From a virus, in IMG/VR virus record IMGVR_UViG_3300042558_004148, positions 207,416-271,415 of that record: DNA of 64,000 nucleotides. One strand, given 5' to 3'. The notes beneath the pieces are model-generated. The model did not search any database. It was not told the origin of the DNA and saw nothing but the letters and a program-made list of their open reading frames with translations. The position numbers and the translations under genes are program-made. Shown here piece after piece: positions 906 to 52,283 of the stretch; within the stretch, counting starts at the first letter, position 1, and every line of letters starts with the position of its first letter.

Positions 906-1484
906 CTAATCAGTTGACTTCTTCTCCTTTTTTGCTCTCTGATATAGAGCCTTATCACTCATTTCTGTTGTTCTACCACCAGTGAGGAAAGAATTAACTC
1001 TTGCCATGGCCCATTGCTGTGGTGTTGTTCCTGGAATATGGCCGGTTTTCCATGCAGCATATCCTCTAGACCAGACCTCTCTAAGTATACCTAATGGAAA
1101 TCCTGTCTTATCAGATTTCTTTTTCAGAGCTTTATATATCGGACTATTTTTTCCCATGGATTTCTCGAGAAGAACTTCCTCGGTTATATCAGCATTTTCA
1201 ATAACAATATCTTCAAATATATCAGATGGAATTTTAAAGCTGTCGAATTCTATAATATTCTTAGATTCGAATTCCTCGTTCTCACCAAACATTTCTTTAT
1301 ACTTTTTTGTATATTTAGATGCTTTGGTAGGAACAGGTTTACCCTTTCCAGCTTTTCTACTTTTATAGTCAGCATCCCATGGACCATAAGCAGAATCGTC
1401 ATCATCCTTTTTATCGGCATGTTTCTTAATCTCCTTCTTCATGACATTGGGATTTGTTGTCAAATATTTCTTTGGTAATTTCAT
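906..1484 (-). CDS. hypothetical Lys-rich protein
   Basis: ORF track. Co-directional with its neighbours. No motif recognised. Confidence 0.45.
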   Translation of the reverse strand: MKLPKKYLTTNPNVMKKEIKKHADKKDDDDSAYGPWDADYKSRKAGKGKPVPTKASKYTKKYKEMFGENEEFESKNIIEFDSFKIPSDIFEDIVIENADITEEVLLEKSMGKNSPIYKALKKKSDKTGFPLGILREVWSRGYAAWKTGHIPGTTPQQWAMARVNSFLTGGRTTEMSDKALYQRAKKEKKSTD

Positions 1485-1499
1485 ATCTTGCTATTTCTA

Positions 1500-2240
1500 T
1501 TATAATTTTATCCATTCCTTAAATCTCATAATCGACTCATTTAGGGTTTCAACAAAATTAAAATCCCTAAGAAAATCACCAAAGTCTTCCAAGTAACCTT
1601 TCTTTGTTTCGTCATATTTATCAGTTGTCCATTGCCAATTGAATGATAGCACATCTGGTGTTTTAAATCCGAAGAATTCAAGGACCTGTTTTTCAAGTTT
1701 TATGGCTTCCGCTCCATTCCAGTTATGTCCGGTAGCTACAACGCCGGTTTCTTTGTTTTTAATTAAATTAGATTCTCCTAATGTTGAATGTCTGCTTTCA
1801 ATCCATGTTAATCTTTCAATTAATTCAGTGTAAATTGAATTCATTTTTCCCCATCTGATGGATCCAAAGAAAATAATTATATCTGCCTCAAAAATAGCAT
1901 TTGCTACTTTATATAGTTCATCCGATTTGTTATTTAAGGAAGCCCAACATCTAATATTACCTGTTGGATTCTTAGATTTATCCTTTAGCATAGCTTCCTT
2001 CAAACCACAGGTATTTCCTCTTTTAGTGGATACGTTTCCTTCACAAGGAAATATTTTTAACTTTGCAACATTAATCAATTCAGTATTATTAGGGCCTAGT
2101 TTTTTTAAAAGCTCCTGTGCTATTATGGAAGATTTGGGTAATTCATCGTCACCTTCCCATCGATTGGAGGTTGTTAGAAAGAGTATTTTTTTCTTTCTGT
2201 CCTTCTTTAAATAGTTATAAAGTTTTTTTAATTTATCCAT
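1500..2240 (-). CDS. flavodoxin-like NAD(P)H-dependent FMN reductase family protein
   Basis: N-terminal KKILFLTTSNR and ADIIIFFGSIRWGKMNS resemble a flavodoxin-fold FMN reductase (Rossmann-like beta-alpha core). It sits divergent from the + strand array. Confidence 0.4.
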   Translation of the reverse strand: MDKLKKLYNYLKKDRKKKILFLTTSNRWEGDDELPKSSIIAQELLKKLGPNNTELINVAKLKIFPCEGNVSTKRGNTCGLKEAMLKDKSKNPTGNIRCWASLNNKSDELYKVANAIFEADIIIFFGSIRWGKMNSIYTELIERLTWIESRHSTLGESNLIKNKETGVVATGHNWNGAEAIKLEKQVLEFFGFKTPDVLSFNWQWTTDKYDETKKGYLEDFGDFLRDFNFVETLNESIMRFKEWIKL

Positions 2241-2306
2241 GAATTATATATCATAATATTTTTTCTTCCCGAAAGATTAACCTATATTTGTTAAAAATAT
2301 TAATAT

Positions 2307-2669
2307 ATGAAGAGTTACTATAGAGTGTGTCATCATGAGACATTACAAGGACTTTGGTATGCATTTAATGGTGATTTCACCGGATTAATCCACGACAAGT
2401 TCAAATTCTGTCTAAACAATGGTCTGGAAATGGAATTTGATGAATCCCTGGTTGGGTGGTTATCTGCCGTTGAATCGCAGGAAGACCTATATGCATGGTT
2501 TACAGAGCATGATATAATGGAATTACAAAAGCATGGGTGGTTCATCCATGAATTTGAATGTGAGGATGTCAGATTCTATGAAAGATTCCAGCATCTTGTT
2601 ATAAAGCAGGAGACAGCAAAAGTAAAAAGATTAATAGAACTTAATTTTGAATATGATGAAAGTAGATGA
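2307..2669 (+). CDS. hypothetical protein
   Basis: ORF track; downstream of a TAnnTTTG promoter at ~2283. Confidence 0.45.
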   Translation: MKSYYRVCHHETLQGLWYAFNGDFTGLIHDKFKFCLNNGLEMEFDESLVGWLSAVESQEDLYAWFTEHDIMELQKHGWFIHEFECEDVRFYERFQHLVIKQETAKVKRLIELNFEYDESR

Positions 2670-2940
2670 GAGCAAACTGACATTTGAGGGAAGTATGAAT
2701 TATATCCTGCAGATAATGCCGGATGACGAAGATCCCGATGAGATATACGTCAATCAATATCAACCAAGGAGAAACAAAGTATGGGTTGGTGCTATGAATA
2801 AAGAAGAACTGATACCTCAGGTGGAGGAAACGATTGAGAGAATGAAAATTGCAATCTCGCATTTACAGGAATACCTGGACGGTAAGAGAGACTATGTCTA
2901 CTATTGGGAAAACGAAAAAGAACCTTGGAAAAGTAAATAG
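2647..2940 (+). CDS. hypothetical protein
   Basis: ORF track; short overlap with the upstream gene. Confidence 0.4.
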   Translation: MNMMKVDESKLTFEGSMNYILQIMPDDEDPDEIYVNQYQPRRNKVWVGAMNKEELIPQVEETIERMKIAISHLQEYLDGKRDYVYYWENEKEPWKSK

Positions 2941-2943
2941 AAT

Positions 2944-4083
2944 ATGGAAAGAAAATTAGCATCAGTACAGAAAGTTAGAGAAATACTCCCAATAGAGGGA
3001 GCGGATGCAATAGAAATTGCAGTTATTAATTCATGGAAGGTTATCACAAAAAAAGGTGAATATCAGCCGGGAGATCTTTGCATTTATTGCGAGATTGATT
3101 CATTTCTCCCAATTAAAGAAGAATTTGAATTTCTCAGAAAGAGCTCGTTTAAAAAGATGGATGGTCAAGAAGGATTCCGCCTTAAAACAATTAGATTGAG
3201 AGGTCAAGTTAGTCAGGGTCTTATATTGCCATTATCAGTTTTAAATGGCGAGGAGGAAATGACTGTTGGTATCAGCCAGCAACCATGGGGAGATCAATTA
3301 CAACTTGGACCTTATGACGATGCACTTGTTATAGAAGAGGGAGCTGATGTTACTGAGATTTTAGGGATAGTCAAGTACGATCCACCAATCCCAGCTCAGC
3401 TTGCAGGTAAGGTTAAAGGTTACTTCCCATCATTCATTCGTAAGACCGACGAGGAAAGGGTTCAAAATCTAACTAATGAATATTTTGGGTGGAAAATACA
3501 ATCAGCTACTCAATTCTACGTTACTGAGAAATTGGACGGAAGCTCTGCAACATTCTATTTCAAGGATGGCGTATTTGGTGTGTGTTCTAGAAATCTAGAA
3601 TTGGCTGAGCCTGAAGCATTCGTTGAAGGTGAAATGGTAATGTGTCAGGATGGTGTTGAACGACCTAAGCAGGAAAATTCCTTCTGGAAAGTTGCTCAGC
3701 ATCTACAACTTGGAGATTGGATGGCAAAACAAGATGCCAACTATGCTATCCAAGGGGAGTTGATTGGCGAAGGAATTCAGGGAAATCCATATAAAATAAA
3801 AGGTCACACCGTTAGATTCTTTAATGCATTCAATATCGATACACAGGAATATCTAGGACTGGATGAATTTGAGGGCTTAATAAAATCAATGGGATTGGAA
3901 ACTGTGCCTATCTTAGATCGTAATTTTCTTCTTCCTAATACAGTTGATGATCTATTGGAATATGCTGACGCAAAATCAGTTTTAAATCCGGATTTCGATA
4001 GAGAGGGAGTCGTTATCAGAAGTCTTGATAGAAAGATTAGCTTCAAAGCTATCTCCAATAAATTCCTATTAAAAGAGAAATAA
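2944..4083 (+). CDS. ATP-dependent RNA ligase (nucleotidyltransferase superfamily)
   Basis: Ligase motif I KxDG (TEKLDGSS), a motif IV-like segment (IQGELIGEG) and a motif V-like segment (YKIKGHTVRF). The N-terminal VQKV..IEGAD...GDLCIYCEIDS stretch is typical of phage Rnl-type ligases. Confidence 0.65.
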   Translation: MERKLASVQKVREILPIEGADAIEIAVINSWKVITKKGEYQPGDLCIYCEIDSFLPIKEEFEFLRKSSFKKMDGQEGFRLKTIRLRGQVSQGLILPLSVLNGEEEMTVGISQQPWGDQLQLGPYDDALVIEEGADVTEILGIVKYDPPIPAQLAGKVKGYFPSFIRKTDEERVQNLTNEYFGWKIQSATQFYVTEKLDGSSATFYFKDGVFGVCSRNLELAEPEAFVEGEMVMCQDGVERPKQENSFWKVAQHLQLGDWMAKQDANYAIQGELIGEGIQGNPYKIKGHTVRFFNAFNIDTQEYLGLDEFEGLIKSMGLETVPILDRNFLLPNTVDDLLEYADAKSVLNPDFDREGVVIRSLDRKISFKAISNKFLLKEK

Positions 4084-4544
4084 TGGGGAGAAATAAAATA
4101 AAGGAGCCATTAGTTAACGAGAGGATAGGAATTCTTCTTAAAGCTAATGGCTTTAATAGAAGTGTTGCTAATTATAATTGGGAATCAGATTCAGAAGGCG
4201 ATATGGTTTTTGAATCGGAGCTTCAGTATCCGAATAATTCCGAATTTACACATAATCCTGAGATTGATCCAGCTATAATTGAATTTGAAAAATGGCAGGA
4301 TTCCCTTATTCCTAGACCTTCACAGGAGGTTGTTAGATACTGGTTATCATCGTATAAATCAATTGAAATTGAAATTGAAATTGATAAAACAGCGGAACCA
4401 AAATATTGTTTCTCCGTTTGGTCTTATTCTGATTTCGGTAACTGGGAAGAAATAAAACAGGATGAGTGGTATTTATACCGGACTCGTCAAGAGGCTATCG
4501 ACGAAGCTATTGAATTAGCTTTAAAAAGCTTACAATACAAATAA
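4083..4544 (+). CDS. hypothetical protein
   Basis: ORF track; contains an in-frame (gaaatt)3 repeat encoding IEIEIEID. Confidence 0.45.
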   Translation: MGRNKIKEPLVNERIGILLKANGFNRSVANYNWESDSEGDMVFESELQYPNNSEFTHNPEIDPAIIEFEKWQDSLIPRPSQEVVRYWLSSYKSIEIEIEIDKTAEPKYCFSVWSYSDFGNWEEIKQDEWYLYRTRQEAIDEAIELALKSLQYK

Positions 4545-4545
4545 A

Positions 4546-5010
4546 TTATCTATTGCCTATTCTTTTCTCTATTTGGGTTTTTGCGTGTTTTATTAGATAT
4601 TCATCAACGTTAGGTATTTTATAAAGGAATTCAAGCTCATATTTATAACAGAGTATTTCCTCTATATTTACATCCATTTTTACGCCGAGCATCTTAATTT
4701 TTAAATGCATGGATTCATGGACCAGAACGGAGCATATGTTATTAATATCACCTATCTTCATATCGGAAGCTGATATAAATATTACTCCTTTACCGTTAGT
4801 TTCTACTAAATTAGTTGAATAACCACCATTCCAAAAGGAAATCTTATAGCAGCTTTTGTCTATAAGGTTATAATATGATGTATCTATGGTATTTATTTTA
4901 TCTAATGCTTTACGAACGTCCTTATCCCAGAAATCACCAGCTTGATCTATTTGTATCTGTGCTGATAAATATACGGGAATAAAAAAGAGAATATAAATTA
5001 TGGATTTCAT
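4546..5010 (-). CDS. secreted HExxH zinc-metallopeptidase-like protein
   Basis: N-terminal signal peptide (MKSIIYILFFIPVYLSAQ) and HExxH (VLVHESMHL). Confidence 0.4.
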   Translation of the reverse strand: MKSIIYILFFIPVYLSAQIQIDQAGDFWDKDVRKALDKINTIDTSYYNLIDKSCYKISFWNGGYSTNLVETNGKGVIFISASDMKIGDINNICSVLVHESMHLKIKMLGVKMDVNIEEILCYKYELEFLYKIPNVDEYLIKHAKTQIEKRIGNR

Positions 5011-19016: not shown

Positions 19017-20054
19017 ATGGATTCAAAATCAGTAATACGATCAATCATAGAAGGAAAGAGCGGGTTACATTTTTCTAAAGGTTGTAAAAAAATGTATAAA
19101 GAACTATATGATGAGATTTGCGAAAATACAAAATTCTTAGATGAGACAAATCCAAGAATAATTGATCGAGCATATCACTACATAAATGGGATAACCGAAT
19201 CTAAAAAATGTATCGAATGTTCAAATCCTATGTCTAGGATTGATTCTACCTTTTGTTCTAAAAAATGCATGGATTCTAGTGAATTCTTAAAAAAGAAAAA
19301 GGAGGAAACAAACTTAAAGAAATTTGGTTCTACAAATGTTTCTAAAACTGATTATTTTAAGGAAAAGTATAAAAATACAATGAATAAAAAATATGGTGTA
19401 GATCATTATTCTAAAACTAAAAGCTATTTAGAAAAGTATAGGGAAACTTCTCTTGAACGATACGGAGAATCGAATCCAGCAAAAAGTGATTTGATAAAAA
19501 AGAAGACTGAAGATACCAATATTGAAAGATATGGAAGTAAAAGTCCTTTGCAAAACCCCGCAATTAAACAAAAAACCATAGAAACTTTGACCTCTAAATA
19601 CAACATCGATCATAATTCTAAAATAGAAGGAAGATATGAAAAAATGAAAGAGAATTCAAATAATAATTTTGGTACCGACCATCCGATGCAAAATGAGGAA
19701 GTTTTTGATAAATGCATGAAAAACTCTTATCGTTTCAAAGAATATAAATTACCCAGTGGTAAAATTGTTAAGGTTCAAGGATATGAGAATTTTGCTTTAG
19801 ATAAATTACTGGAGTCCTATAATGAAAATGATTTGATTATAGGGACTAAAGAGATAAAAACTATTATAGGTAGAATCGAATACTTTTTCGAAGGTGGAAA
19901 AAAAGTATATCATCCTGATATTTACATAGTATCAGAAAATAAAATTGTTGAAGTTAAGTCAGCCTACACGATTAAGCTTGATTTAGAAAAAAACGAAGCT
20001 AAAAGAAAAGCTGTTTTAGATAAAGGAATTAATTTTGAATTTATGATTTTTTAA
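19017..20054 (+). CDS. putative nuclease: Zn-ribbon + six ~23-aa tandem repeats + C-terminal PD-(D/E)xK domain
   Basis: CIECSN...CSKKC zinc ribbon. Repeats of the form K.K.E....K(Y/F)G..(H/N).... x6. C-terminal YHPDIYIV...IVEVKSAY gives D...E.K (restriction-endonuclease-like). Confidence 0.45.
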   Translation: MDSKSVIRSIIEGKSGLHFSKGCKKMYKELYDEICENTKFLDETNPRIIDRAYHYINGITESKKCIECSNPMSRIDSTFCSKKCMDSSEFLKKKKEETNLKKFGSTNVSKTDYFKEKYKNTMNKKYGVDHYSKTKSYLEKYRETSLERYGESNPAKSDLIKKKTEDTNIERYGSKSPLQNPAIKQKTIETLTSKYNIDHNSKIEGRYEKMKENSNNNFGTDHPMQNEEVFDKCMKNSYRFKEYKLPSGKIVKVQGYENFALDKLLESYNENDLIIGTKEIKTIIGRIEYFFEGGKKVYHPDIYIVSENKIVEVKSAYTIKLDLEKNEAKRKAVLDKGINFEFMIF

Positions 20055-29247: not shown

Positions 29248-30765
29248 ATGTTTAAACCCACAAGTTTATTTTACACTGATGGCTATAAAATTGGCCACAA
29301 GAAAATGTTAGCTCCCGGAACAACCCGTTTGTACGGTACTTGGATTCCACGAAGCACAAAGCATGCTCCTGAGGGAGTAGATAAAATAGTATCATTCGGT
29401 CAACAATTGGTAGTGAAATGGTTACATGATGAATTCGAAGAGAATTTTTTCAAACAACCAATTAGCGTTGCTACTAAATTTTCCGATGATATGTCAAAGT
29501 ATTTAGGACTTCCGTTCGATGGTTCACACTTCTCGGAATTACATCATCTGGGTTACTTGCCTATTAGAATTAAAGCTTTACCTGAAGGTATCGAAACAAA
29601 CCCTAACATCCCTCACATGACATTTGTGAATACTGTGGATGGATTCGGATGGTTAACATTATATTTGGAGACCATCATATCTTCATTGGCATGGAAACCA
29701 GCAACCTCTGCTACACTTGCACTAAGATACCGAAGAAATTTGGTTGAATGGGTTACGAAAACTGATCCGGCTAACGCTTGGTTAATTCCTTTCCTATGTC
29801 ACGACTTCTCTGCTAGAGGTTTATCTCCATGGGATATGTTATCTAGTGGTTTAGGACACGCTACGTCATTCAGAGGATCTGACACTATTGTTTGTATTCC
29901 TGCAGCACGATACTTCTATAACGAGCCAGAAAACGATGTCTGCATCAATTCTGTTAACGCTTCTGAACACTCAGTATCAACAACAAAGATATTTACTGTA
30001 GGAGAACAACAAATGATCTCCGATTGGTTAACTGAATTCCCTACAGGAATCCTATCAATTGTATCTGACACTTTTGATTTATGGAAACTTATCACGGAAT
30101 ATCTTCCTGCAAATAAAGAGCAAATCATGTCACGTGATGGAAAACTTGTTATCCGTCCTGACTCTGGTGATCCAGTAGATATTATCTGTGGTTCAGTGGA
30201 TGTGTTTAAGCACAATGATCCTAATTCACCACAAAGAAAAGGTGTAGTTGAATTACTTTGGGATATCTTCGGTGGAACAATCAACGAACAAGGATACAAA
30301 GTTCTTGATCCACATATTGGTGCGATCTACGGGGATTCAATCACAGTTGGTCGTCAGATTCAAATCTATGAAAGATTAGAAGAAAAAGGTTTTGCTTCAA
30401 CAAACATCGTGTTGGGAATCGGATCATTCACTTATCAAATGAATACTAGAGATACTTTGGGATTCGCTGCTAAAGGAGCTTGGTTCGAAGTAGAAGAACC
30501 TATATTTGGTGAATTTTTAGACCAAAATCTAAATACTGAAAAGGTTGCTTATGACATCTATAAAGATCCAATCACTGACGACGGAACTAAAAAATCATTG
30601 AAGGGATTAGTTCAAGTTGTAATGGAAGGCGATGAATATCATGTTAATACTCAATGTACTTGGGAACAGGAGGAGCAGGGCTTTTTACAAACAATCTATG
30701 AAGAGGGAAGATTCGTTAACGAAACAACTCTTGAGGAAGTACGTAACAAATTAAATTCTTTATAA
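29248..30765 (+). CDS. nadV: nicotinamide phosphoribosyltransferase family protein (Nampt/NadV-like; candidate nicotinamide ADP-ribose transferase)
   Basis: LFYTDGYKIGHKKMLAPGTTRLYGTWIPRS matches the Nampt N-terminus (tDsYK.tH..yP..t..yS....R). NASEHSVSTT matches AAEHST. Length 505 aa. Confidence 0.75.
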   Translation: MFKPTSLFYTDGYKIGHKKMLAPGTTRLYGTWIPRSTKHAPEGVDKIVSFGQQLVVKWLHDEFEENFFKQPISVATKFSDDMSKYLGLPFDGSHFSELHHLGYLPIRIKALPEGIETNPNIPHMTFVNTVDGFGWLTLYLETIISSLAWKPATSATLALRYRRNLVEWVTKTDPANAWLIPFLCHDFSARGLSPWDMLSSGLGHATSFRGSDTIVCIPAARYFYNEPENDVCINSVNASEHSVSTTKIFTVGEQQMISDWLTEFPTGILSIVSDTFDLWKLITEYLPANKEQIMSRDGKLVIRPDSGDPVDIICGSVDVFKHNDPNSPQRKGVVELLWDIFGGTINEQGYKVLDPHIGAIYGDSITVGRQIQIYERLEEKGFASTNIVLGIGSFTYQMNTRDTLGFAAKGAWFEVEEPIFGEFLDQNLNTEKVAYDIYKDPITDDGTKKSLKGLVQVVMEGDEYHVNTQCTWEQEEQGFLQTIYEEGRFVNETTLEEVRNKLNSL

Positions 30766-39860: not shown

Positions 39861-41072
39861 ATGTCTATTTGGCTTTCATTACTTATACCAGTTCTTGCAG
39901 CAGCAGTTATGCTGAAGTGGTTTCCTAAATATTTAGCATGGTGGGAAGGAGCTATTCCTCTAGCTGTTTGCTTTGTATTCATTGGGATTTTTAAATTCAC
40001 GGTCGAAAAAGTACAGGTGAATGACACTGAGTATCACGGTGCTCTTATAGTCGAAGCCAGATACTATGAGTATTGGGAAACTTACGTACATCGAACATGC
40101 ACAAGGACGGTTAGTTGCGGTAAAAATTGCACAACAACTGTTTCTTATGACTGTTCATATTGTGACGAGAATTATGAACGCTGGACAGTTGTAAATTCAC
40201 TGGGTAATGAATTTACAGTATCAAAATCATATTACGATTATCTTGTTAAGAAATGGAAAGACACACCAGAATTTGTAGAGCTAAACAGGGATATTGATCA
40301 TAGCGGTGGATGTGGACAGGATGGGGATATGTACAGGGTTAATTGGAATGCAGATCCACTAACAGCAGAAGCTACGACTACAAGTCATTGGTATGAGAAT
40401 AGAGTACAGGCAGCTCACACAGCTTTCGATTTTGCTGATGTTACCGAGGATGATGTAAAAGCATATAAACTATTTGAATATCCCGATATAGACGGATTCC
40501 AACAGGAGACAGTTCTTGGATTGGATAAAGTTAAATGGGTGAAGAAATGGGAAGTCAATAGGATGAAACAATGGGCAAAATATCTAAATGGACATCTCGG
40601 AACCAAAAAACACGCAAGAATATATTTACTATTCTTCGTTGATCAATCTGCTTTAGCAGCTAATATGCAGGAAGCATACTGGGACGGCGGAAATGATAAT
40701 GAGTTAGTTGTTTGTATAGGTCTTAATAGTAAAACCAGAAAGATCCAATGGACCAGACCATTTACATGGTCACCGGAAAGAAGGATCATACCAGATGTCA
40801 GAGAGGATATAATGTCAAGAGATAATTTCGACGTCGATAATATAGCAAATTCAATATTGGTTAATGTTGGGAAAGAGTACAAAAGAAAGAACTTTGAGGA
40901 ATTCTCATACATCACAGTTGAACCACCTACATGGGCTAAATGGGTAACATTTATAGTAACCTTAATGATAACTGTAGCACTATGCTGGTGGGCAGTTACG
41001 AATCAAATAGATTCAGCATATGATCCTTTAAAGGAATTATTTAATAAAAGAAATAATGGATATAGATATTAA
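39861..41072 (+). CDS. membrane protein with Cys-rich ectodomain
   Basis: N- and C-terminal TM helices; multiple Cys (CTRTVSCGKNCTT...CSYCD). Confidence 0.45.
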   Translation: MSIWLSLLIPVLAAAVMLKWFPKYLAWWEGAIPLAVCFVFIGIFKFTVEKVQVNDTEYHGALIVEARYYEYWETYVHRTCTRTVSCGKNCTTTVSYDCSYCDENYERWTVVNSLGNEFTVSKSYYDYLVKKWKDTPEFVELNRDIDHSGGCGQDGDMYRVNWNADPLTAEATTTSHWYENRVQAAHTAFDFADVTEDDVKAYKLFEYPDIDGFQQETVLGLDKVKWVKKWEVNRMKQWAKYLNGHLGTKKHARIYLLFFVDQSALAANMQEAYWDGGNDNELVVCIGLNSKTRKIQWTRPFTWSPERRIIPDVREDIMSRDNFDVDNIANSILVNVGKEYKRKNFEEFSYITVEPPTWAKWVTFIVTLMITVALCWWAVTNQIDSAYDPLKELFNKRNNGYRY

Positions 41073-42817: not shown

Positions 42818-43032
42818 TGAATTATTTGATATATAAATCTATGTTTGGTGCCATTATAATAAAATCTAGGGATGTTCAGGAAGCTAAAGAAAAATGGGGC
42901 TCAGAAATGGTCGACTCATTATTTAAGTTGTTAAATGGAAATCATCCGGATCACATTATAAAAAACCTAGAATCAGAGGATAAATTTGAAGAAGCTAAAT
43001 GCTTGATGTTTATACTTAGAAATAGAAAATAA
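42817..43032 (+). CDS. hypothetical protein
   Basis: ORF track. Confidence 0.4.
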   Translation: MNYLIYKSMFGAIIIKSRDVQEAKEKWGSEMVDSLFKLLNGNHPDHIIKNLESEDKFEEAKCLMFILRNRK

Positions 43033-43118
43033 TTTTGAAACATAACATCAAATAGGTGATATAAAAATAGAACACTAAGAGGTTTAGTAATAGACAATCA
43101 TAGATGTTTGTTTTGGTT

Positions 43119-43148
43119 CACCAGAGTCTTTTTAAGACTCTGGTTTTT
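43119..43148 (+). terminator. rho-independent terminator
   Basis: ACCAGAGTCTttttaAGACTCTGGT + TTTTTATT. Confidence 0.65.
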
Positions 43149-43173
43149 TATTAAAAATAATTTTAAATAACTA

Positions 43174-43353
43174 TGACAAATTCAGAGCAAATTGAAGAGA
43201 TTATGTACGAGGCATATAATCTTAAAATACACAGAAAGGTGTTCGATCTTGCAAAAAAACATATAGACGAAGGTTCACTTGCTGTTGATGCTTATGAGAA
43301 AGCATTAAGAACAGTGAAAGAGAATAGAAGAAGAGAGATCGCTGCTAGATAGT
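43174..43353 (+). CDS. small hypothetical protein (59 aa)
   Basis: ATG directly after the terminator. Below the ORF-track size cutoff. Coordinates approximate. Confidence 0.3.
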
Positions 43354-43653
43354 GATCTCTTTTTCATTTAAGTCGACTTTATTTTCTGGCTTCAATAAAT
43401 AATACAATCCAAAAAACAATGCCGATATGGAATAGAAAATTATATCGGTTACCCAATATGATCCAGTCCACTTCATCACAAGAGCGAATAGTGCGTCGAA
43501 TCCCAATGGATTGAAGAAAGTTGCTAGGATAAGAATTAGTGTTCTTATTTTTTTCTTTTTGTTCACGTTTAAAACTATCGGGGTCCATAGAGGAATTAAT
43601 TTTCTAAACATATGATATACAATATAATATGTTACGGGATTCAAGTTATCCAT
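43345..43653 (-). CDS. small membrane protein
   Basis: Three hydrophobic helices. Confidence 0.4.
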   Translation of the reverse strand: MDNLNPVTYYIVYHMFRKLIPLWTPIVLNVNKKKKIRTLILILATFFNPLGFDALFALVMKWTGSYWVTDIIFYSISALFFGLYYLLKPENKVDLNEKEITI

Positions 43654-43878
43654 CTCTATATATTTATTTCCGAAATTTTTTTATATTCCCGCATATAATA
43701 CTTATATTTACAAATTATTAACTAGTTTAAATTAATATGTCGGTAATTTCAAACAATAAGTATGACATGTTTAATTGGGTTGAGAAAATAATTGGCTCTT
43801 ATAAAACTTTAGATCATACTAATGGTTCTGATAGATTATAAGAGAGGTTTAAGATTAAATCAATGAAAAAAAGAAAAT

Positions 43879-49231: not shown

Positions 49232-49311
49232 GGTCCTGGAGCTTAATCTGACGTGGAAGTCAGGTCTGCCTCTAAAACAGATAGCATCGGGTTCGAATCC
49301 TGCTAGGATCA
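49232..49311 (+). tRNA. tRNA-like gene A (80 nt, non-canonical D region), anticodon loop C-U-CUA-A-A (amber-suppressor-like CUA)
   Basis: Acceptor GGTCCTG pairs with TAGGATC (two G.U pairs). T arm CGGG-TTCGAAT-CCTG. Anticodon stem TCTG/CAGA closes the loop CTCTAAA. Discriminator A. No encoded CCA. Confidence 0.45.
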
Positions 49312-49317
49312 CAAAAG

Positions 49318-49330
49318 AGTTCTTTGAAAT
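49318..49330 (+). repeat. 13-bp direct repeat AGTTCTTTGAAAT (copy 1)
   Basis: Identical 13-mer recurs at 50148..50160, bracketing about 820 bp. Confidence 0.5.
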
Positions 49331-49597
49331 AGTAAGATAGCAGATAGACCTATATCAGCAGAATCCCACAGGGAGTCAGAAATGACGAGCAAGACGGAGC
49401 TCCTATCAGATTAACGCGTTGAGGAGGCACTCAAAGTTTTCCGAGAGGTTAACAGGTGTATAAACGATGGTTTGGGTAGAACGGATGTTAAAGGCGAGAT
49501 ATAGGTAGAAAGGATGGGGTAACCCACGAATGTGTAAATCTTAAGGTCTTACTATTTTAATTATTCTTGATTGATAATTAACACTTAAAAAATATTT

Positions 49598-50164: not shown

Positions 50165-50840
50165 AAAAATATCATAAAAACGGCCTGGTTGGTAGACAGG
50201 GAGGAGTATTTAATGTAATCTGCTCAATGTGAGGAAATAACTGTCTGTAGGCATACAACAGTCCAAACGATAAACCATTATGATACAATTAGCAATGGAG
50301 GTAAACGCGAGATGAAGCGTTGGAGAATAGGGGCTCATGGATTTGAGATTCCCGCCTGGCTACCCATCAGGACTTTATAAGATAATTCCATCCACCTATA
50401 AGAAACCATTGCTTTTTAAAATATATTTAGTTAATAAATATTTTGGGGAAAGGATTAATTAACTAAACAGGTTAAACATTGAATACCTTTGTAAATTATA
50501 GTTGGGCATTTCACAGATGAGTGTTTAGATGAGTTTGAATCTCAGATTGTCCTCAAAGTTAAGAAGTTGAAAGACTCTTTTGCTATAGGTTTACATAAAG
50601 ATACTATCAGTAATGGTAGATGTGTTGTTCCCTTGAGAAAGGAATACGATTTGGCAAGCTTGGTGCAGGAGTTTTGATACTGACAAGACAACACAAATGA
50701 GTTCTCAGCAAGTGCTTCGAAAAGCTATGCAGTTTTAAAACTCCTATGGAGCCTTACAAACTAGAAGTACGTGACCCTACTCTTATACAAGCCCCGTAAC
50801 TGATAACTCGGTAGGCTATAAGAAAGAGGGTGCTAAATAA
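50165..50840. other. about 680-bp ORF-free, GC-richer block; candidate structured ncRNA(s)
   Basis: No ORF of 60 aa or more on either strand. Composition differs from the flanking AT-rich genes. It sits inside the tRNA-like cluster. Confidence 0.3.
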
Positions 50841-50845
50841 AAGTT

Positions 50846-51052
50846 ATGGAAAGAGAAATAAGTAAAGAAACTGATGAGTTTATTGATAAATTAGACCATC
50901 TATGTTGGGAACATCGCTTTGAAATTTGGCCAACTGATACCATTAATAAAAGAAATGAAGATGGATCATATCCAACTTTTACTATTCATAATATGAGCAA
51001 TGGGGAAACAGTAAGATTAATATATGTCGATGGTGACGGAAGAGGTAAATAA
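50846..51052 (+). CDS. hypothetical protein
   Basis: ORF track. Confidence 0.4.
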   Translation: MEREISKETDEFIDKLDHLCWEHRFEIWPTDTINKRNEDGSYPTFTIHNMSNGETVRLIYVDGDGRGK

Positions 51053-51058
51053 TTAAAT

Positions 51059-51228
51059 AGTCAGGTGGCGGAATTGGTAGACGCTATTTTGAAAGCAAAC
51101 AGTTGCAGGATTAGATCGGCACCAGCTAAGTAGTATCAAATGCCATTAAGGTACTGGGTCGTAATAACTGATATTAACCGCTCGCGGTTGGCATGTAATC
51201 CATGCAGGTTCGAGTCCTGCCCTGACTA
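51059..51228 (+). tRNA. tRNA-like gene B (about 170 nt): type-II-like 5' half and T arm/acceptor separated by an insertion of about 100 nt
   Basis: 5' AGTCAGG-TG-GCGGAATTGGTAGACGC (canonical acceptor + D arm). 3' GCAGG-TTCGAGT-CCTGC + CCTGACT + A. The acceptor strands are complementary. About 100 nt too long for a tRNA. Confidence 0.45.
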
Positions 51229-51734: not shown

Positions 51735-51864
51735 AGTCAGGTGGCGGAATTGGTAGACGCTAGACAGGTAACCAACTACAACTGTAATAAACCCGCTGAT
51801 CACGGTTAATAAGAACAGCTCTGTCGCAGAGGTTGGTATACAGGTTCGAATCCTGTCCTGGCTA
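51735..51864 (+). tRNA. tRNA-like gene C (about 130 nt): first 28 nt identical to gene B; insertion of about 57 nt
   Basis: 5' AGTCAGGTGGCGGAATTGGTAGACGCTA is identical to B. 3' ACAGG-TTCGAAT-CCTGT + CCTGGCT + A. The acceptor pairs with one G.U pair. Confidence 0.45.
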
Positions 51865-52009
51865 CTTAGCAAGGCATAAACGATAAGGAAAATCTGTCAC
51901 AAGTTTATGTTAAGTTGCAGACAGACCGAAATGCTTACGGTTAACAGGGCTTACCCATAAAGTCCAGAGAGCATAATCTAACGGGTGACTGATGGAAAGA
52001 CATCAAAAT

Positions 52010-52096
52010 AGTCAGGTGGTGTAATAGGCAACACCCTTCATTATCAGGCCCCGTAAGGCTGGAAGGACGACGCAGGTTCGAATCCTGTCCTGACCA
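52010..52096 (+). tRNA. tRNA-like gene D (87 nt) with an extended (about 32-nt) anticodon-arm-like hairpin
   Basis: Acceptor AGTCAGG/CCTGACC (A1.C72). D arm GTGT-AATAGGCA-ACAC. Long hairpin CCTTC...CAG(G)CC-CCGTAA-GGCTG...GAAGG. T arm GCAGG-TTCGAAT-CCTGT. Confidence 0.45.
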
Positions 52097-52217: not shown

Positions 52218-52283
52218 AGTCAGATGAAAGTAGGCTAAGACGAATTAAGTTTCGCGTTGCAGGTTCGATTCCTGCTCTGACTA
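52218..52283 (+). tRNA. tRNA-like gene E (66 nt, degenerate; possibly a pseudo-tRNA)
   Basis: Acceptor AGTCAGA/TCTGACT and T arm GCAGG-TTCGATT-CCTGC. The internal region is too short for both a D arm and an anticodon arm. Confidence 0.35.

Follow-up and report, generated by a model that had tools for sequence, protein, structure and literature searches.

GOLLD (RF01998) and ROOL (RF03087) are structured RNAs of phages and prophages with unknown function that are characteristically encoded next to transfer RNA (tRNA) genes and reportedly highly expressed during infection (Weinberg et al. 2009, 2017). Theta ribozymes, which resemble the ribozyme of hepatitis delta virus (HDV), sit beside phage tRNAs in Bacteroidota and Bacillota phages (Kienbeck et al. 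2024, PMC10879173), and the g004-g005 intergenic region of Cellulophaga phage phi14:2 has been described by Drobysheva et al. as a very abundant "long non-coding RNA" of unknown function (bioRxiv 10.1101/2020.03.07.982082). Here, we analyze a block of about 680 bp (positions 50165-50840) in a stretch of 64,000 nucleotides (nt) of viral DNA from IMG/VR record IMGVR_UViG_3300042558_004148 (the window) that is free of long open reading frames (ORFs) and, judged by its relatives, very probably holds the gene of an expressed, structured noncoding RNA (ncRNA), which we call the type-2 RNA. Elements conserved with covariation account for about 370 of the 680 bp. The type-2 family is conserved, structured, strand-specific, and confined to phage-derived sequence, i.e., viral contigs, contigs of metagenome-assembled genomes (MAGs), and one cultured phage, and the RNA family occurs in Bacteroidota phages as different as crAss-like and jumbo-phage-like ones.

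Among described systems, the type-2 RNA behaves most like the tRNA-clustered phage ncRNAs GOLLD and ROOL, which are much larger (about 600 to 800 nt) and unrelated to it in sequence and structure; neither has a match in the block at the gathering threshold or at E<=10. The same holds for every family of Rfam 15, including the models for tRNA (RF00005), transfer-messenger RNA (tmRNA), RNase P RNA, group I introns, and HDV ribozymes, and ARAGORN finds no tRNA or tmRNA anywhere in the 64-kb window, leaving the block without a tRNA cloverleaf. A preliminary description of the block, made by eye, had recognized no group I intron, tmRNA, or RNase P motifs and had called for this Rfam scan, whose empty result bears it out. 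Literature searches by sequence string and topic returned nothing beyond the remark on phi14:2 and the theta ribozyme paper, and no later paper on the phi14:2 intergenic RNAs was found in the literature searched. The RNA family appears to be undescribed apart from that one-sentence remark on expression.

A block without long reading frames and its transcribed relative in phage phi14:2

In BLAST comparisons with cultured phages, the type-2 RNA was found only in the crAss-like (Crassvirales) phage phi14:2, where the homolog lies on the plus strand at about 3100-3360 of the phage record, behind a promoter-like box at 2913-2944. RefSeq lets g004 end at 2904 and g006 start at 4602, and we infer that the homolog lies in the gap between g004 and g005, taking the ORF at 3590-3910 as g005. 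Both this gap and the g005-g006 intergenic region are transcribed rightward and above most protein-coding genes, with transcripts that are already there at the first time point and undiminished later (bioRxiv 10.1101/2020.03.07.982082). The phi14:2 RNA shares with the window copy (elements listed in Table 1) the box, helix P1, the loop of hairpin H1, the ACAACAC-AAATGAGTTCTCAGC strand, the stem of arm V2, the 3' hairpin, the GGGTGCTAA tail, the plus-strand orientation, and a location in an intergenic region of about 685 bp. It differs in the bases of the H1 stem, where the change is compensatory, and in a leader that is about 100 nt longer, and its phage is a crAss-like podovirus of ~100 kb, whereas the proteins of the window resemble those of jumbo Tenacibaculum phages and Lak megaphages. 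The phi14:2 study, which reportedly also appeared in Nature in 2021, treats transcription only, without a sequence family, structure, or function.

In GenBank record KC821624, the phi14:2 ncRNA is overlaid by gp007-gp009 (2988-3313), three minus-strand "hypothetical proteins" of 34 to 39 amino acids (aa) that RefSeq dropped in June 2020 and that are clearly spurious ORF calls over an RNA gene. That a homolog could be hidden beneath three such mini-ORFs illustrates how badly phage ncRNAs are under-annotated. With phi14:2 growing on Cellulophaga baltica, and the RNA of this region being among the most abundant phage transcripts, a cultivable model is at hand. As a separate observation, the second transcribed intergenic region of phi14:2 (4031-4502) is tmRNA-like (GGGGTCGACTGGTTTTGA ... 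GGGGGTTCGAATCCCCCCGACTCCAC), and a similar GGGGGAGCC... sequence lies directly 3' of the type-2 RNA at one of our related loci, L111 (loci are given by such L numbers throughout).

The absence of any ORF of 60 aa or more that was claimed for the block stands, with the longest ORFs measuring 50 aa (minus strand, 50542-50694), 42 aa, and 41 aa, and no stop-free run exceeding 60 codons on either strand. Such a gap was rightly called highly unusual: only 12 of 1267 sliding 676-nt segments across the 64 kb (0.9%) have a maximum of <=62 codons, of which 7 overlap the block, 4 lie over other noncoding parts of the cluster, and 1 starts at 42851. Outside the RNA cluster, the only other stretch similarly poor in ORFs (43033-43878) resembles none of the fetched loci and carries what look like hairpin terminators along with small ORFs. 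The block had further been described as GC-richer than its surroundings, and its GC content of 36.8% does exceed that of the whole window (34.6%) and of the flanking ORFs (34.2% and 31.4%), but the excess is modest and comes from two sub-blocks of ~39.5% (50165-50420 and 50586-50840) around a spacer of 28.5% GC. That tRNA-like genes flank it is only loosely true, since Rfam tRNA hits do lie nearby but ARAGORN accepts none of them, and the nearest tRNA-like elements are set apart from the block by ORFs of 181 aa (upstream) and 68 aa (downstream, ATG at 50846).

An alternative genetic code with readthrough of TAG or TGA was considered because a tRNA-like gene with a CUA anticodon sits at 49239-49311. 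It was rejected: TAA, TAG, and TGA are each present in all six frames of the block, so reassignment of a stop codon cannot open a gene. In the closest homologs compared, the 60-codon open stretch is either frameshifted (L039) or missing (L015), and a protein-coding gene or pseudogene was rejected given the stops in all frames and the failure of homologs to keep this stretch. The earlier suggestion of a decayed gene is thus left unsupported.

Upstream of the type-2 RNA, the block carries a box with the family consensus GGYTAAACATTGAW..CCTTTGTRAAT that lies 60 to 300 nt before the core, in the window 152 nt before P1 and in phi14:2 in the same arrangement. Of the 63 box-like matches listed, in which the 14-mer GGYTAAACATTGAA could carry as many as 2 substitutions, 46 lie 60 to 300 nt 5' of a core motif, including those in the window and both phi14:2 records, with some rows possibly reflecting chance or duplicate contigs. 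The TACCTTTG within the box fits the Bacteroidetes -7 consensus TAnnTTTG, and the box is a candidate promoter of the type-2 RNA. Scans for sigma-70 promoters and intrinsic terminators showed enrichment of neither, and the terminator scan found no T-tract terminator. The leader behind the box is variable; the window version is 85% identical to L039 1774-1862, and a 53-nt piece of it is found again in a peripheral hairpin of the L015 RNA, where the stem shows a compensatory change (GAG...CTC versus CAGG...CCTG).

Fold and variation of the type-2 RNA

The core of the type-2 RNA follows the consensus GTGTTGT-NCC-CTTGAGAAA-GGN, later ACAACAC-AAATGAG-TTCTCAGC, and the window agrees with the consensus of 20 homologs at every position of 50622-50644 and 50688-50709. 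Full-length homologs are 62% to 84% identical. A covariance model built from an alignment of type-2 RNAs finds exactly one copy in the window (E=1.9e-11, in a match split in two by the long arms) and nothing else below E=1. In an alignment of 20 type-2 RNAs from which the interiors of the variable arms were cut out, standard pairs fill 92.3% of the cells, compared to 84.6% in column shuffles and 38% to 51% in controls with slid partners. Both sides have changed in 20 of the 43 pairs, compared to 9.5±1.8 in the shuffles (0 of 500 reach 20) and 8 to 13 in the slid-partner controls, and the covariation score of 0.221 compares to 0.090 and 0.041 to 0.088, respectively. Most of the covariation comes from hairpin H0 (6/6 pairs changed on both sides) and arm V2 (8/8 pairs), and the 3' hairpin covaries too; the G-U pairs in H0 and V2 fit the plus strand only. 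The structure comparison with related phages that the preliminary description had proposed has been made, and the helices of the type-2 RNA, like those of the smaller RNA A1 described below, covary.

Run on 16 unspliced sequences, RNAalifold finds P1, V2, and the 3' hairpin on its own, together with a closure of 3 bp (AGC/GCU). For H1 it chooses another register than the one adopted here, which we prefer because it is supported by compensatory variants in which UCC/GGA becomes CAC/GUG (phi14:2), UGC/GCA (L102), or UUC/GAA (L005), and also UCAU/AUGA. Helix P1 has a variant GCGUUGU/ACAACGC in L122, and the strands UGAGAA/UUCUCA become UUGGAA/UUCCAA (loop UUUGGAA) in L284, a single contig returned by a scan for H1 loops with a changed middle base, giving two compensatory pairs. 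From these sequences, we infer a pseudoknot between the H1 loop and the UUCUCA strand, which would lock the core. We had also considered H1 as a mimic of the tRNA-Leu(GAG) anticodon arm with a CUC "codon" as partner, an idea whose appeal lies in a loop of 7 nt in which a U takes the place of tRNA U33 and is followed by GAG and then A. It is weakened by L284, where the two strands change together, so what is conserved is the pairing and not the identity of an anticodon.

The same pairing evidence bears on the alternative that what is conserved is not functional RNA but an element that is selfish or acts at the DNA level, for example a mobile repeat, homing target, origin, or packaging site. The core is near-identical across crAss-like and jumbo-phage-like phages, modules are shuffled between related genomes, and the window holds both a homing endonuclease gene and an AT-rich palindrome (50426-50467), as such an element might; compensatory pairing with G-U pairs that fit one strand only, the occurrence of type 2 once per locus in a fixed orientation relative to genes, and the high transcription of the homologous phi14:2 region make this explanation highly improbable.

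Table 1. Elements of the block and its upstream edge, in window coordinates
Feature	Position	Strand	Remarks
Direct repeat copy 2, AAAATAGTTCTTTGAAATTATAA	50143-50165	+	23 nt, 87% identity to 49313-49335
RNA A1	50170-50285	+	~115 nt; homologs with compensatory changes
Orphan stretch A2	50294-50420	+	GC-richer; no homolog among loci searched
AT-rich inverted repeat	50426-50467	.	19-nt arms, 4-nt loop, 84% complementary
Conserved box GGTTAAACATTGAATACCTTTGTAAAT	50470-50496	+	candidate promoter of type-2 RNA
Variable leader	50497-50589	+	between box and conserved RNA; T-arm-like hairpin GAGTTTGAATCTC
Type-2 phage ncRNA	about 50590-50840	+	~250 nt; covariation, covariance model
Type-2 5' motif ACATAAAGATA	50593-50603	+	
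Type-2 hairpin H0	50604-50619	+	GTAA loop
Type-2 helix P1	50622-50628 / 50688-50694	+	7 bp, GUGUUGU/ACAACAC
Type-2 hairpin H1	stem 50629-50631 / 50641-50643, loop 50632-50640	+	
Type-2 pseudoknot (predicted)	50634-50639 with 50702-50707	+	TGAGAA with TTCTCA
Type-2 variable arm V1	50645-50687	+	
Type-2 optional arm V2	50710-50772	+	
Type-2 3' hairpin	50773-50831	+	
Type-2 closing pairs	50708-50709 / 50832-50833	+	GC/GC
Type-2 tail GCTAAA	ends 5-8 nt before ATG at 50846	+	

Within the window copy, 16 nt of V1 (50667-50682) are 88% complementary to V2 (50730-50745). This complementarity is probably incidental or lineage-specific because L043 has the same V1 but lacks V2.

Type-1 relatives and possible functions of the family

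The family was reached through a 24-nt piece (50620-50643) that recurs in L005 and L006 between tRNA-like modules and is all that the closest relatives of the window, L002-L006 (68-aa ORF 90% identical), have in common with the block. The 18-base core motif GTGTTGTNNCCTTGAGAAAG occurs in at least 118 exact IMG/VR stretches, where chance would roughly give about 1 to 2, and a second anchor (ACAACACAGAGG...CCTCAA) adds at least 120 more; being anchored on exact motifs, these scans under-sample diversity and overstate conservation. In species-representative genomes, the motif was found only on 12 MAG contigs from unrelated phyla, which we read as mis-binned phage DNA. The result is a covariation-supported family with hundreds of members in environmental Bacteroidota phages that is absent from Rfam 15. 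All members share a core in which the 7-bp helix P1 encloses H1 and V1 and is followed by a UUCUCA strand complementary to the H1 loop, and across both types of the family H1 has a stem of 3 to 4 bp and a loop of 7 to 9 nt with invariant UGAGA. Type-2 RNAs measure 135 to 330 nt and add H0 with its GNRA loop, the optional V2, and a 3' hairpin ending GGGUGCUAA. Around their core, H0, V1, V2, and the 3' arm differ freely in length and sequence yet stay paired.

Type-1 RNAs are shorter (about 90 to 130 nt) and present UUCUCA in the loop of a second hairpin, H2, whose stem covaries (GAGG/CCUC, AAGGG/CCCUU, and GAGGG/CCCUC). They alternate with tRNA-Leu-like modules, and among 114 distinct copies 22 start 3 to 5 nt after a tRNA-like 3' end and 40 end 2 to 4 nt before the next tRNA-like 5' end. 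A type-1 query against cultured phages gave chance-level matches only. The alternation with tRNA-like modules at a spacing of 2 to 5 nt resembles the tRNA-miRNA (microRNA) TMERs of murine gammaherpesvirus 68 (MHV68), MALAT1-mascRNA, and mitochondrial tRNA punctuation, and by analogy suggests release of type-1 RNAs by RNase P and RNase Z, with the flanking tRNA-like genes serving as processing handles from which the two enzymes would excise the RNA. Unlike such tRNA-punctuated transcripts, the window copy has the promoter-like box instead of an upstream tRNA-like module, and among 44 type-2 copies none comes directly after a tRNA-like gene. Many type-1 cores that are not tRNA-adjacent (L007, L090, L092, L103, L108, L112, and L113) have AAGCAGTTAAGATTGGAGCGAGAYGGGTACTCC..CACTATCAA.AATATT, also conserved, 60 nt upstream; this sequence may be another RNA module.

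Taken as a whole, we consider it on balance probable that the block is an island of ncRNA genes read on the plus strand that includes a stable, trans-acting, and partner-binding type-2 RNA; the specific trans-acting, partner-binding role is by itself a tentative proposal. It would have the box drive transcription of a type-2 RNA that accumulates as a stable trans-acting molecule, with the invariant core binding a conserved partner, either protein or RNA, and the RNA acting together with the neighboring tRNA-like RNAs in a tRNA- or translation-related takeover or in counter-defense. An RNA that binds a conserved partner or is catalytic would be expected to combine an invariant core with freely varying peripheral arms, as seen here, and the interleaving of type-1 units with tRNA-like modules suggests a role connected with phage tRNA-like RNAs. 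The RNA is proposed to act in trans rather than on a specific gene because downstream elements differ and no neighboring protein family recurs widely: downstream of the RNA in 22 homologs lie unrelated ORFs, tRNA-like genes, other RNAs, or nothing for >100 nt, and no conserved neighbor protein was found, with the best family present in 7 of 47 neighborhoods.

Several points weigh against this picture. The spliced alignment and the structure were built from the same sequences, which favors the structure. P1 and the pseudoknot are invariant in the 20-sequence alignment, such that their support comes from few variants, and L118 has an uncompensated UUCCAA. Single-sequence folding yields z-scores of -0.08 for the whole block, -1.1 for the type-2 RNA, and -0.7 for A1 plus A2, and the minus strand of the whole block folds slightly better (z -1.8); these minimum free energy (MFE) z-scores are uninformative, the folding energies being no better than those of shuffles. 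RNA A1 is known in only three copies. Finally, the type-2 RNA runs into the ATG of the 68-aa ORF without a terminator, which makes co-transcription as a leader possible.

This last point is the starting place for reading the 3' RNA as a cis-acting leader, i.e., a 5' untranslated element controlling the next gene, here the 68-aa ORF. The RNA ends 5 to 8 nt before the ATG, in several homologs an ORF starts 4 to 30 nt after GGTGCTAAA, and the neighboring ORFs are all co-oriented. A riboswitch or leader would be expected to keep its downstream gene family, but the element that follows is not conserved across the 22 homologs and the best neighbor reaches only the 7 of 47 loci mentioned above. Moreover, L002-L006 carry the same 68-aa ORF (90%) behind other upstream elements and the type-1 relatives sit between RNA genes, making a cis-acting leader very unlikely. 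Another candidate, the ncRNA of UG27 reverse transcriptases (PMC9226505), was dropped since the directly flanking ORFs include no reverse transcriptase gene, the wider neighborhood not having been scanned for one.

The main competitor to the favored trans-acting, partner-binding role is catalysis, with the P1/H1/pseudoknot core as a new self-cleaving or catalytic RNA that would trim polycistronic transcripts of tRNA-like RNAs and ncRNAs, as theta ribozymes trim tRNA 3' trailers. Such a role would suit a compact, pseudoknotted core of ~45 near-invariant nucleotides with freely variable arms, and the phage encodes an RNA ligase. Theta ribozymes occupy similar positions in Bacteroidota and Bacillota phages (PMC10879173), and type-1 relatives are theta-like in abutting tRNA-like 3' ends (3 to 5 nt), in a 7-bp P1 that begins with G, and in the pseudoknot; they abut tRNA-like 5' ends (2 to 4 nt) as well. 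The strand order P1-H1-V1-P1'-partner strand is, however, not the nested double pseudoknot P1-P2-P3-P1.1-P4 of HDV-like ribozymes, and the core lacks the catalytic C of J4/2 and the 3'-terminal P2 strand; many family members have AGAGG directly before UUCUCA and no C, such that the would-be catalytic C is absent in many copies. No ribozyme family of Rfam matches at E<=10. The placement typical of theta ribozymes (~5 nt from a tRNA 3' end) is seen in the 22 of 114 type-1 copies but not in the window copy or any of the 44 type-2 copies. Type-2 copies carry conserved sequence 5' of P1. The high and persistent abundance of the phi14:2 RNA suits a stable functional RNA at least as well, and we regard a new ribozyme as quite unlikely.

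We favor trans-acting partner binding over a new ribozyme, and the latter over a cis-acting leader. A broader possibility, unlikely as it is, would be that the core represents a new class of RNA machine, either a self-cleaving or RNA-processing ribozyme or a decoy or sensor working with the insert-bearing tRNA-Leu-like RNAs described below; if true, the phage would carry its own RNA-based system to mature or protect its arsenal of tRNA-like RNAs. Mutagenesis, pull-downs, and cleavage assays can now be directed at a defined core, pseudoknot, and set of dispensable arms.

The remainder of the block and the neighboring tRNA-like cluster

The 5' half of the block begins behind a direct repeat that had been noted as 13 bp at 49318 and 50148. 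It is real and extends to 23 nt, with the 13-mer AGTTCTTTGAAAT as its core. Repeat copy 1 (49313-49335) directly precedes another conserved noncoding RNA-like block, the 13-mer also lies 19 nt 5' of a related RNA in L025, and GTTCTTTGAA is found 5' of the promoter-like box in L086, L109, and L121; the repeat possibly serves as a signal for transcription or processing upstream of RNA A1. This RNA is closed by an AU-rich terminal helix (50170-50177 TATCATAA / 50278-50285 TTATGATA) and contains two internal hairpins as well as conserved segments at the 5' side (CGGCCTGGTTGGTAGA, 50181-50196) and the 3' side (GATAAACCATT, 50269-50279). Its homologs are L144 7712-7850 (+) and L112 7694-7843 (-). 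For the three sequences, RNAalifold predicts 36 pairs, of which 12 are changed on both sides. When read by eye, the terminal helix is rewritten yet complementary in all three (TATCATAA/TTATGATA, AATAATGAAA/TTTCATTATT, and AATGTAATAT/ATATTACATT), and in the register of RNAalifold itself it has a few broken cells. With both A1 and the type-2 RNA having homologs that bear compensatory base-pair changes, the proposal of one or more structured ncRNAs in the block, raised in the preliminary description, gains support.

The adjacent stretch A2 has no homolog among 229 fetched loci. An 18-mer from it is absent from IMG/VR, and its 54 matches in metagenomes of the Joint Genome Institute (JGI) are all to unrelated high-GC DNA (chance matches in bacterial genes). 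Its 3' part GGATTTGAGATTCCCGCCTGGCTAC (50339-50363) weakly resembles the T-arm and acceptor 3' half of neighboring tRNA-like genes, with GATTCCCG-CCTGGCTAC agreeing with GAATCCTGTCCTGGCTAC of 51847-51864 at 15 of 18 positions, a score reached by 27 of 500 shuffles (p ~0.05). It is possible from this likeness that A2 holds a decayed tRNA-like 3' half, such that the degenerate tRNAs once suggested for the block would have at most a minor part in it. Reading A1 and A2 together as one large tRNA-like shell (GGCCUGG/CCUGGCU acceptor), as the MFE fold suggests, was rejected because the A1 homologs in L144 and L112 lack the 3' partner. Between A1/A2 and the promoter-like box sits the AT-rich inverted repeat, which may be an RNA 3'-end hairpin or a protein site.

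The lack of homologs of A2 and its weakly tRNA-like 3' part, the recurrence in A1 of TTGGTAGAC from the tRNA-like D-loop, and the presence of a 60-codon open stretch could also be taken to mean that the block is mere decay and functionless today, made up of remnants of tRNA-like genes, of a broken protein gene, or of both. For the block as a whole this is the least probable of the explanations considered, given the covarying conserved elements that make up ~370 of its 680 bp and an open stretch that is not kept as an ORF. Decay is contradicted for 50170-50285 and 50590-50840 and possible only for 50294-50420.

Around the block, hits of the Rfam tRNA model at 51735-51864 and 52010-52096 exceed the threshold, and those at 49239-49311 and 52218-52283 fall short of it. 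The gene at 49239-49311 has the anticodon loop CUCUAAA (CUA, amber-suppressor-like) and reaches 25.4 bits against an Rfam threshold of 29. The others belong to a set of tRNA-Leu-like "shells", found in the window at 51059-51228, 51735-51864, 52010-52096, and 52218-52283 and in L005 at 1240-4365. Their acceptor stem reads AGTCAGG/CCTGACT, their D-arm GCGGAATTGGTAGACGC, and their T-arm GGTTCGAATCC, the discriminator is A, and in place of the anticodon arm they carry a structured insert of 25 to 110 nt, a topology that recalls tmRNA. ARAGORN rejects the shells, the Rfam tRNA model gives them 27 to 38 bits, and relatives contain arrays of at least 8. These tRNA-Leu-like RNAs with large inserts, alternating with RNAs of the family described here, point to a wider unexplained system.

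The window probably comes from a large Bacteroidota phage because its 403-aa ORF at 39861-41072 is nearest to proteins of jumbo Tenacibaculum phages and Lak megaphages. It also encodes an RNA ligase (phrog_968, E=1e-92; 2944-4083), a nicotinamide phosphoribosyltransferase (29248-30765), and a homing-endonuclease-like protein (19017-20054). The 250-nt noncoding block after repeat copy 1 (49324-49571) has a 14-nt terminal helix (49324-49337 / 49547-49560), no Rfam match, and 86% to 90% identity to six IMG/VR contigs (L007, L054, L065, L103, L108, and L112), and is probably a third ncRNA family. The spacer between two of the shells (51865-52010) is conserved in L135 (84%) and L144 (90%), and GTTAACAG recurs in three spacers of the cluster (51937, 52127, and 49445).

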